Positions 5,327 to 5,868 of a stretch of DNA of 25,512 nt are shown here, piece by piece. This DNA is from a virus (Duplodnaviria; Heunggongvirae; Uroviricota; Caudoviricetes), in the IMG/VR virus record IMGVR_UViG_2627853638_000001, positions 1-25,512 of that record, one strand, 5' to 3'. The notes below the pieces were generated by a model, which did no database searches, had not been told where the DNA came from, and worked only from the letters and a program-made list of their open reading frames with translations. The position numbers were made by a program, and so were the translations under genes. Position 1 is the stretch's first letter. Each line of letters begins with the position of its first letter.

Positions 5327-5395
5327 ATGGCGCTTTACACAATTGGTGAAGTGGCGTTGCTTTGTGATATTAACCCTGTCACGTTACGCGCGTGA
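5327..5395 (+). pseudogene. mlrA: mlrA (yehV) 5' fragment: first 22 codons (MALYTIGEVALLCDINPVTLRA) then a stop; the gene is interrupted by prophage insertion
   Basis: MerR-family N-terminus of MlrA as I recall it. The expected Trp codon 23 is replaced by TGA where phage-type sequence begins. Confidence 0.8.
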
Positions 5396-5559
5396 CGCAA
5401 CATTTTAAAAAATCGACGAAGATCGTCCAGGAGCGCCGTTTTTCAAGGGTTGGATAGATGATTCGTTTACCATGTCGACGAACTTCGACGAATTTCGCCG
5501 ATAAAAAGTGTCCCATACATGCCCCATTGATGCCCCATAAACAATATCAGAAATTGATA

Positions 5560-5575
5560 CTGGTTATCCATACAG
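5560..5575 (+). promoter_or_regulatory. LexA (SOS) box 1, CTG-N10-CAG
   Basis: aTACTGgttatccataCAGat compared with the consensus TACTG(TA)5CAGTA. Confidence 0.55.
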
Positions 5576-5588
5576 ATAAAAATAACAC

Positions 5589-5604
5589 CTGTACATAACT
5601 ACAG
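5589..5604 (+). promoter_or_regulatory. LexA (SOS) box 2, CTGTACATAACTACAG
   Basis: Close match to CTGTATATATATACAG; lies 16 nt upstream of the dinI-like ATG and overlaps the likely promoter. Confidence 0.65.
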
Positions 5605-5619
5605 TTACAGGAGGGTGTT

Positions 5620-5868
5620 ATGCGTGTTGAGATCTGTATCGCTAAAGAAAAAATCACTAAAATGCCAAACGGTGCTGTGGATGCGTTAAAGGAAGAATTA
5701 ACCCGACGCATCAGTAAACGTTATGACGATGTAGAGGTGATCGTAAAAGCCACCAGCAACGATGGCCTTTCTGTTACACGCACCGCAGATAAGGATTCTG
5801 CAAAAACATTTGTTCAGGAGACTCTGAAAGATACCTGGGAGTCTGCTGACGAGTGGTTTGTTCACTAA
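5620..5868 (+). CDS. dinI: DinI-family (DNA-damage-inducible protein I-like) prophage protein, 82 aa
   Basis: Size and sequence typical of DinI paralogues ([11 protein letters not shown]...). RBS AGGAGGG. Two LexA boxes upstream and a terminator downstream. Confidence 0.8.

Follow-up and report, generated by a model that had tools for sequence, protein, structure and literature searches.

The window analysed here, a stretch of 25,512 bp corresponding to the NCBI contig AMKG01000019.1 of assembly GCA_000815835.1, contains the first 22 codons of mlrA joined, at a 20-bp attachment core, to the arm of a lambdoid prophage that carries an intact ipaH gene and continues into the remnant of a second prophage. 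Here it is proposed, with a probability of roughly 0.93, that a lambdoid phage integrated at the mlrA core, that its prophage later decayed and exchanged an arm with a prophage of the serU/mtfA type, and that the inactivation of mlrA was thereby fixed, the events having probably followed in this order. According to this proposal, a tyrosine integrase would have brought the phage in at the 20-bp core, positions 5327-5620 being the junction distal to int, and the integration would have parted the mlrA promoter and 22 codons from the remaining 221 codons, a split expected to inactivate a MerR-type activator of csgD and of curli expression. The phage would have delivered the cargo of its tail-fibre end, which includes a dinI-like gene with LexA-type boxes, a methyltransferase and ipaH with an MxiE box. 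Insertions of IS elements and deletions would then have led to the decay of the prophage, and homologous recombination within a 4.27-kb ipaH module would have swapped its right arm with that of the second prophage at serU/mtfA.

On the host side of the junction, positions 85-5326 contain the E. coli-type genes yehQ, yehR, yehS, btsR and btsS, followed by the btsS-mlrA intergenic region (5106..5326, plus strand) with the mlrA promoter and leader, which is intact, its 221 bp being 100% identical to K-12. The 5' stub of mlrA (5327..5395, plus strand) has 22 native codons and a TGA created by the junction, as seen from its translation and from the alignment to K-12 mlrA; the frame starts with the ATG at 5327, reads MALYTIGEVALLCDINPVTLRA and stops at the TGA at 5393-5395. 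Residues 1-22 of K-12 MlrA are identical to the stub, and the next is Trp23 (TGG) where the stub has TGA. At the DNA level, positions 5327-5394 agree with bases 1-68 of K-12 mlrA in 67 of the 68 bases (98.5%), the sole mismatch being a synonymous AAT>AAC at 5374, and the identity ends sharply after 5394. The stop codon straddles the boundary, its T and G coming from the shared core and its A, at 5395, being the first base specific to the phage. No further mlrA sequence was found by blastn-short or tblastn in the whole window in any frame. The truncation of mlrA at codon 22 is confirmed by these alignments, in agreement with the sequence-only reading, in which the match to MlrA lasted for 22 codons and ended with a TGA where phage-type sequence starts. 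The same reading had named the rest of MlrA in another frame as the finding that would indicate a point mutation, and no such sequence exists across the window. A nonsense mutation that turned codon 23 from TGG into TGA, or a frameshift, in a continuous mlrA, for which it speaks that the TGA is one base away from the native Trp codon, has next to no probability, as the sequence past 5394 is unrelated to mlrA, the window lacks any more of the gene in any frame, and the downstream DNA is phage DNA that also occurs in free phages. A point mutation in mlrA was ruled out on the K-12 alignment together with the absence of other mlrA sequence in the window.

The end of the K-12 identity coincides with the end of the 20-bp att core, CCTGTCACGTTACGCGCGTG (5375..5394, plus strand), which spans mlrA codons 17-23 and within which the crossover lies. 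An exact copy of this core is present in intact K-12 mlrA (attB) and at the junction in the window, as well as at the int-side junction in contig AMKG01000020.1 (same assembly; locus L005), in the enteroinvasive E. coli (EIEC) strain CFSAN029787 (locus L003) and in the complete genomes behind loci L011, L012 and L018. The free-phage record phi330 (PV189401.1) has it as well, in the interval from int to dinI, where it stands twice in tandem (positions 2460-2499 of locus L009), which makes phi330 an imperfect attP reference; the tandem may be an artefact, if the record was derived from a prophage with a junction copy at either end. The presence of the core in attB, in the attP record and at both junctions is the relationship produced by site-specific recombination of a tyrosine integrase, and in the window host mlrA passes through the core directly into phage DNA, the downstream sequence being matched in phage records. 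This four-way comparison upholds the claim of the sequence-only reading that a prophage is inserted in mlrA after codon 22, and the alignment to an intact mlrA that it had proposed places the crossover at 5375-5394. The base before the core, 5374, is C (AAC, Asn16) in the window and in the EIEC genome and T in K-12; the int-side arm of the phage likewise has C at the matching position, and the identity could reach 21 bp in some hosts. A query of 801 bp spanning the junction was covered to at least 80% in 427 of 5426 complete E. coli genomes, including those of O157:H7, many strains of which have the stub-core-dinI junction at 98.1% identity over the 801 bp.

The int-side junction lies outside the window; the evidence for it comes from the neighbouring contig and from relatives. 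The 3' part of mlrA, which had been expected at the other end of the prophage, was found there on the neighbouring contig AMKG01000020.1 of the same assembly. Beside this half only around 200 bp of the cognate int remain (its 3' end), cut by an IS3-family element, while the mlrA-type int is of full length in EIEC CFSAN029787 and in phi330. With the mlrA halves no longer linked and the cognate integrase destroyed, an excision restoring mlrA seems impossible, and the split appears to be irreversible. MlrA is a MerR-family activator of csgD. A single ORF with the N-terminal HTH, the helical and the C-terminal MlrA domains is absent, 22 codons being here and 221 on the other contig; the 22-codon stub cannot be functional, and mlrA is most probably inactive in the window strain.

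The promoterless 3' fragment, which lies at 26403-27104 of the EIEC locus (L003) and at 8367-9068 of the locus of the neighbouring contig (L005), was considered as a source of residual function. In the EIEC genome, RefSeq/PGAP annotates it as a 233-aa MlrA with an ATT start in phage-derived sequence, which hints at possible residual expression. If the phage rebuilt a working mlrA at its int side, the arm would give the N-terminus and read-through from int would give the transcription; besides the 233-aa annotation at the EIEC junction, this could draw on the int-side phage arm CAATTGGTTTACCTTTAATC (CAATTGGT...TTAAT), which resembles mlrA codons 4-16 with a deletion of around 11 nt, and on the run-off transcription of distal mlrA in O157:H7 (PMC5931665), but an in-frame stop lies 11 codons upstream of the core and no ATG, GTG or TTG is present from this stop to codon 23 of the fragment, the annotated start being ATT. 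Additionally, the first HTH helix is short of around five residues, an IS interrupts the upstream int in the window's own genome, and the run-off transcripts of the distal fragments in O157:H7 did not restore csgD, the DNA-binding region being lost (PMC5931665). A functional mlrA at the int side was rejected as very improbable for its lack of a canonical start, its shortened helix 1 and the lack of rescue in the literature, and the reading retained is that of a gene inactivated by phage integration.

Past the core, the window is a hybrid of two prophages. The sequence-only reading had assumed a single prophage with the mlrA halves at its two ends; the 3' half does exist, but recombination has joined the arm next to the stub to a different prophage. 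The exchange is centred on a 4.27-kb module (6292..10560) that contains the methyltransferase, ipaH, a DUF4376 gene and the 3' part of a tail fibre gene, and that is duplicated in the second prophage, the module in the window being 99.8% identical to the second copies in loci L011 and L017. Identity with the EIEC prophage ends at 10560. From there to 25420 the window has a serU/mtfA-type prophage remnant colinear with S. boydii CP049285.1 and CP000036.1; from around 8158 onward it is 99.9% identical to the prophage of S. boydii 602068 (CP049285.1), and positions 14760-25000 match the prophage adjoining tRNA-Ser/mtfA in E. coli Ec-U3. Of the structural modules of the mlrA phage, only tail-fibre remnants are left in the window, the full set being present between the EIEC junctions. 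The int at the right end (25122) is 99% identical to the serU/mtfA-type int, its ORF has an internal stop, and no similarity to the mlrA-type int was found by blastn or tblastx; judging from these comparisons, it is not the integrase that made the mlrA junction.

The arrangements in other genomes were compared through a look-up of the methyltransferase protein in complete chromosomes, which have one copy of the module in the mlrA prophage and the other in a prophage between zinT and serU/mtfA. In the colinear genomes CP162059.1 and CP055124.1, the stub is followed by a remnant of around 10 kb and the 3' part of mlrA, with the cores 10 kb apart. The right arms are swapped in CP000036.1, CP162080.1, AMKB01 and the window, and in CP162080.1 the mlrA halves lie around 824 kb apart. 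The arrangement of the window is identical to that of Shigella boydii Sb227, which we take CP000036.1 to be. A chimera, made by a short-read draft assembly across an exact repeat of 3.5-4.3 kb, is a very improbable source of the junction or of the link between stub and right-hand prophage: the contig is an Illumina draft with adapter sequence (bases 1-28) that runs into IS ends on both sides, and its 3552-bp segment at 7009-10560 recurs with 100% identity at the start of AMKG01000020.1, the next contig, yet positions 85-16979 are colinear with the finished Shigella chromosome CP000036.1 (99.93%) and with the complete CP162080.1 (99.8%), and the stub-dinI junction occurs in hundreds of complete genomes. 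The colinearity at 99.93% with CP000036.1 indicates that the arrangement is genuine, and the suspicion of an assembly chimera raised by the 3552-bp repeat was dismissed, the same arrangement being found in complete chromosomes.

The serU/mtfA-type remnant includes tail fibre and baseplate fragments, an IS3-family element, a DUF968 gene, hok and two inverted IS1 copies, and also early genes, a cI-like repressor, an exonuclease, xis and an int truncated after around codon 100. The IS3-family element (13490-14754, with orfA and orfB at 13555-14711) truncates a Mu/P2-type baseplate J gene and joins the tail-fibre/baseplate fragments to nin-region genes (DUF968); from this direct joining it follows that all head, lysis and Q genes are deleted. 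A 70-aa ORF of the hok/gef family of type I toxins (15958-16170) has been kept in the remnant. The two inverted IS1 copies (17206-17974 and 21896-22663) flank the region for immunity and replication in the right-hand prophage, with genes for Ead-like, DUF4406 and DUF977 proteins, a replication protein and YdaT-like, cro-like and cI-like products. Regarding the ends of the contig, positions 1-28 are an Illumina adapter (TCTTTCCCTACACGACGCTCTTCCGATCT), a contamination left in the deposited draft assembly, and positions 29-86 and 25421-25512 are the opposite termini of the same IS3-family element (TGAACCGCCCCGGG... inverted repeats), which encodes a 404-aa transposase in related loci and at whose copies the assembly broke; one of these copies interrupts yehQ at around 85, and the other is the one that truncates the serU/mtfA-type int.

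Directly after the core, the int-distal phage arm has a non-coding region (5395..5619, plus strand) with a 95.5% match to phi330. It contains two exact copies of the repeat ATGCCCCAT (5519-5527 and 5530-5538), which are 11 bp apart, and a similar motif is present on the integrase side; from their sequence and placement, these repeats may be arm-type Int sites. The first phage gene past the junction (5620..5868, plus strand) is in the orientation of mlrA and encodes an 82-aa product with a DinI domain (PF06183). This product scores 71.7 bits against NF007893, under the equivalog cut-off of 111, which marks it as DinI-like and not as an ortholog of the chromosomal DinI, and it is annotated in relatives as a DinI-like family protein. 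A sigma-70-like promoter is predicted for the gene at 5554-5583, and a pattern search for CTG-N10-CAG gave two LexA-type boxes on the plus strand, at 5560-5575 (CTGGTTATCCATACAG) and 5589-5604 (CTGTACATAACTACAG), which lie 16-60 nt upstream of the dinI ATG and overlap the predicted promoter. This layout suggests LexA control of the dinI-like gene.

The sequence-only reading also had the intact mlrA promoter pointing into the prophage toward dinI, and the geometry is as it described, with the 221 bp intact and the dinI-like gene in the same orientation. Terminator prediction and folding gave no convincing intrinsic terminator between the mlrA promoter and dinI; the sole plus-strand match considered between the stub and dinI lies inside native mlrA coding sequence, with a fold z-score of -1.0, and was rejected. 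Transcripts from the mlrA promoter may run on into dinI. That dinI has its own predicted promoter under LexA-type boxes counts against a reliance on read-through, and the 225 nt of untranslated RNA past the premature stop would plausibly be a target for Rho. The order of mlrA promoter, core and dinI, with the same orientation, is conserved in lysogens of the same phage type, and a tentative and rather doubtful idea is that it would constitute a promoter-capture device, in which an RpoS-dependent promoter reads into the dinI-like gene. If this were the case, a RecA modulator, and hence the stability of the prophage, would be tied to stationary phase besides the SOS control.

Downstream of dinI, the arm has the remnant of a tail fibre assembly gene (5984..6253, minus strand; PF02413, Caudo_TAP), which is a partial pseudogene in the EIEC annotation, and a gene for a class I SAM-dependent methyltransferase (6310..6978, plus strand), assigned by Pfam methyltransferase families and by the EIEC annotation; this phage cargo gene (moron) is also present in free phages. 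It is followed by an intact ipaH gene (7294..8937, plus strand) encoding a type III secretion system (T3SS) effector of 547 aa with LRR and NEL E3 ubiquitin ligase domains. Its product scores 562 bits against NF046045 (IpaH_Shig; cut-off 550), matches PF12468 and PF14496 (NEL) and aligns over its full length to PDB 3CVR (E = 1e-283), and its translation shows the catalytic-Cys motif, SCEDR. Upstream of ipaH by 119 nt lies a 17-bp MxiE box, GTATCGTTTTTTTACAG (7159..7175, plus strand), which has 0 mismatches to a consensus that reportedly goes back to Mavris et al. 2002 and is the single match in the window even when up to 3 mismatches are allowed. The box suggests that a chromosomal effector is wired to MxiE/IpgC, the regulator of the virulence plasmid. 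The T3SS effector that had been ascribed to the prophage arm is thus this ipaH, both by its score and by the box in front of it. Lambdoid phages typically carry their cargo between the tail fibres and att; having ipaH in this interval, the window has the effector at the usual lambdoid cargo site.

These observations explain one step in the loss of a biofilm/curli regulator in a Shigella-type genome and show the route by which one chromosomal ipaH copy arrived, by a lambdoid phage through the att site of mlrA. Broken curli genes have been reported for Shigella, and if they are broken in the window strain too, the split of mlrA would amount to neutral decay. The observations also present ipaH modules as substrates of recombination that reshuffle the chromosome. 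A literature search for mlrA disruption in Shigella gave no specific paper. The kind of event is already known from O157:H7, both the insertion in mlrA and its effect on curli, and this is no new kind of system; the exact arrangement is also already contained in finished public Shigella genomes, and the value of the present analysis is that of confirmation and annotation, not of discovery.

The nearest known systems are the Stx1 prophage Sp15 of O157:H7, which is integrated in yehV (mlrA) and agrees with the earlier description of mlrA as an attachment locus of lambdoid phages (PMC3530523), and CP-933V and its truncated derivatives at the same place. The window shares with them the target gene, the proximal position and the junction sequence. 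A proximal mlrA prophage insertion was reported in 53 of 55 O157:H7 strains, where it abolished mlrA expression and curli-dependent phenotypes (PMC3874044), and the loss of mlrA expression and curli described there (PMC3874044, PMC3530523) is the counterpart of what is proposed here. Unlike Sp15 and CP-933V, the cargo in the window is ipaH with an MxiE box and not stx1, and the prophage is a remnant recombined with a second prophage.

The closest relative of the mlrA arm is in EIEC CFSAN029787 (NZ_CP011416.1), which has an apparently complete ipaHe-carrying prophage of around 46 kb between the same two junctions, with the order dinI, tail, head, terminase, lysis, Q, replication, repressor, xis and int, the int adjoining the 3' part of mlrA. 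It is 98.8% identical to the window over 85-10560, and the junction, dinI, methyltransferase and ipaH are common to both; the core stands at each end of the EIEC prophage. The EIEC prophage keeps its phage modules but has a frameshifted ipaH, whereas in the window ipaH is intact and the prophage is a gutted hybrid.

The exchangeable effector loci of lambdoid prophages in EHEC, reportedly described by Tobe et al. 2006, are similar in having a T3SS effector between the tail-fibre genes and att, transcribed apart from the late genes. In contrast to these loci, the effector in the window is an IpaH (NEL ligase) of Shigella/EIEC; it has a box of the plasmid-encoded MxiE/IpgC type and is not a LEE-dependent effector. 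Finally, one account describes the ipaH genes of Shigella as surrounded by the remains of prophages and IS elements, at loci that differ between lineages, and calls the mechanism of their integration uncertain (PMC8072062, and Ashida et al. 2007 as cited in it). The window resembles these chromosomal islands in having ipaH amid prophage and IS debris, with copies at differing loci in each lineage, and differs from those of PMC8072062 in that the att core and the EIEC relative identify a phage integration at mlrA followed by recombination between prophages.
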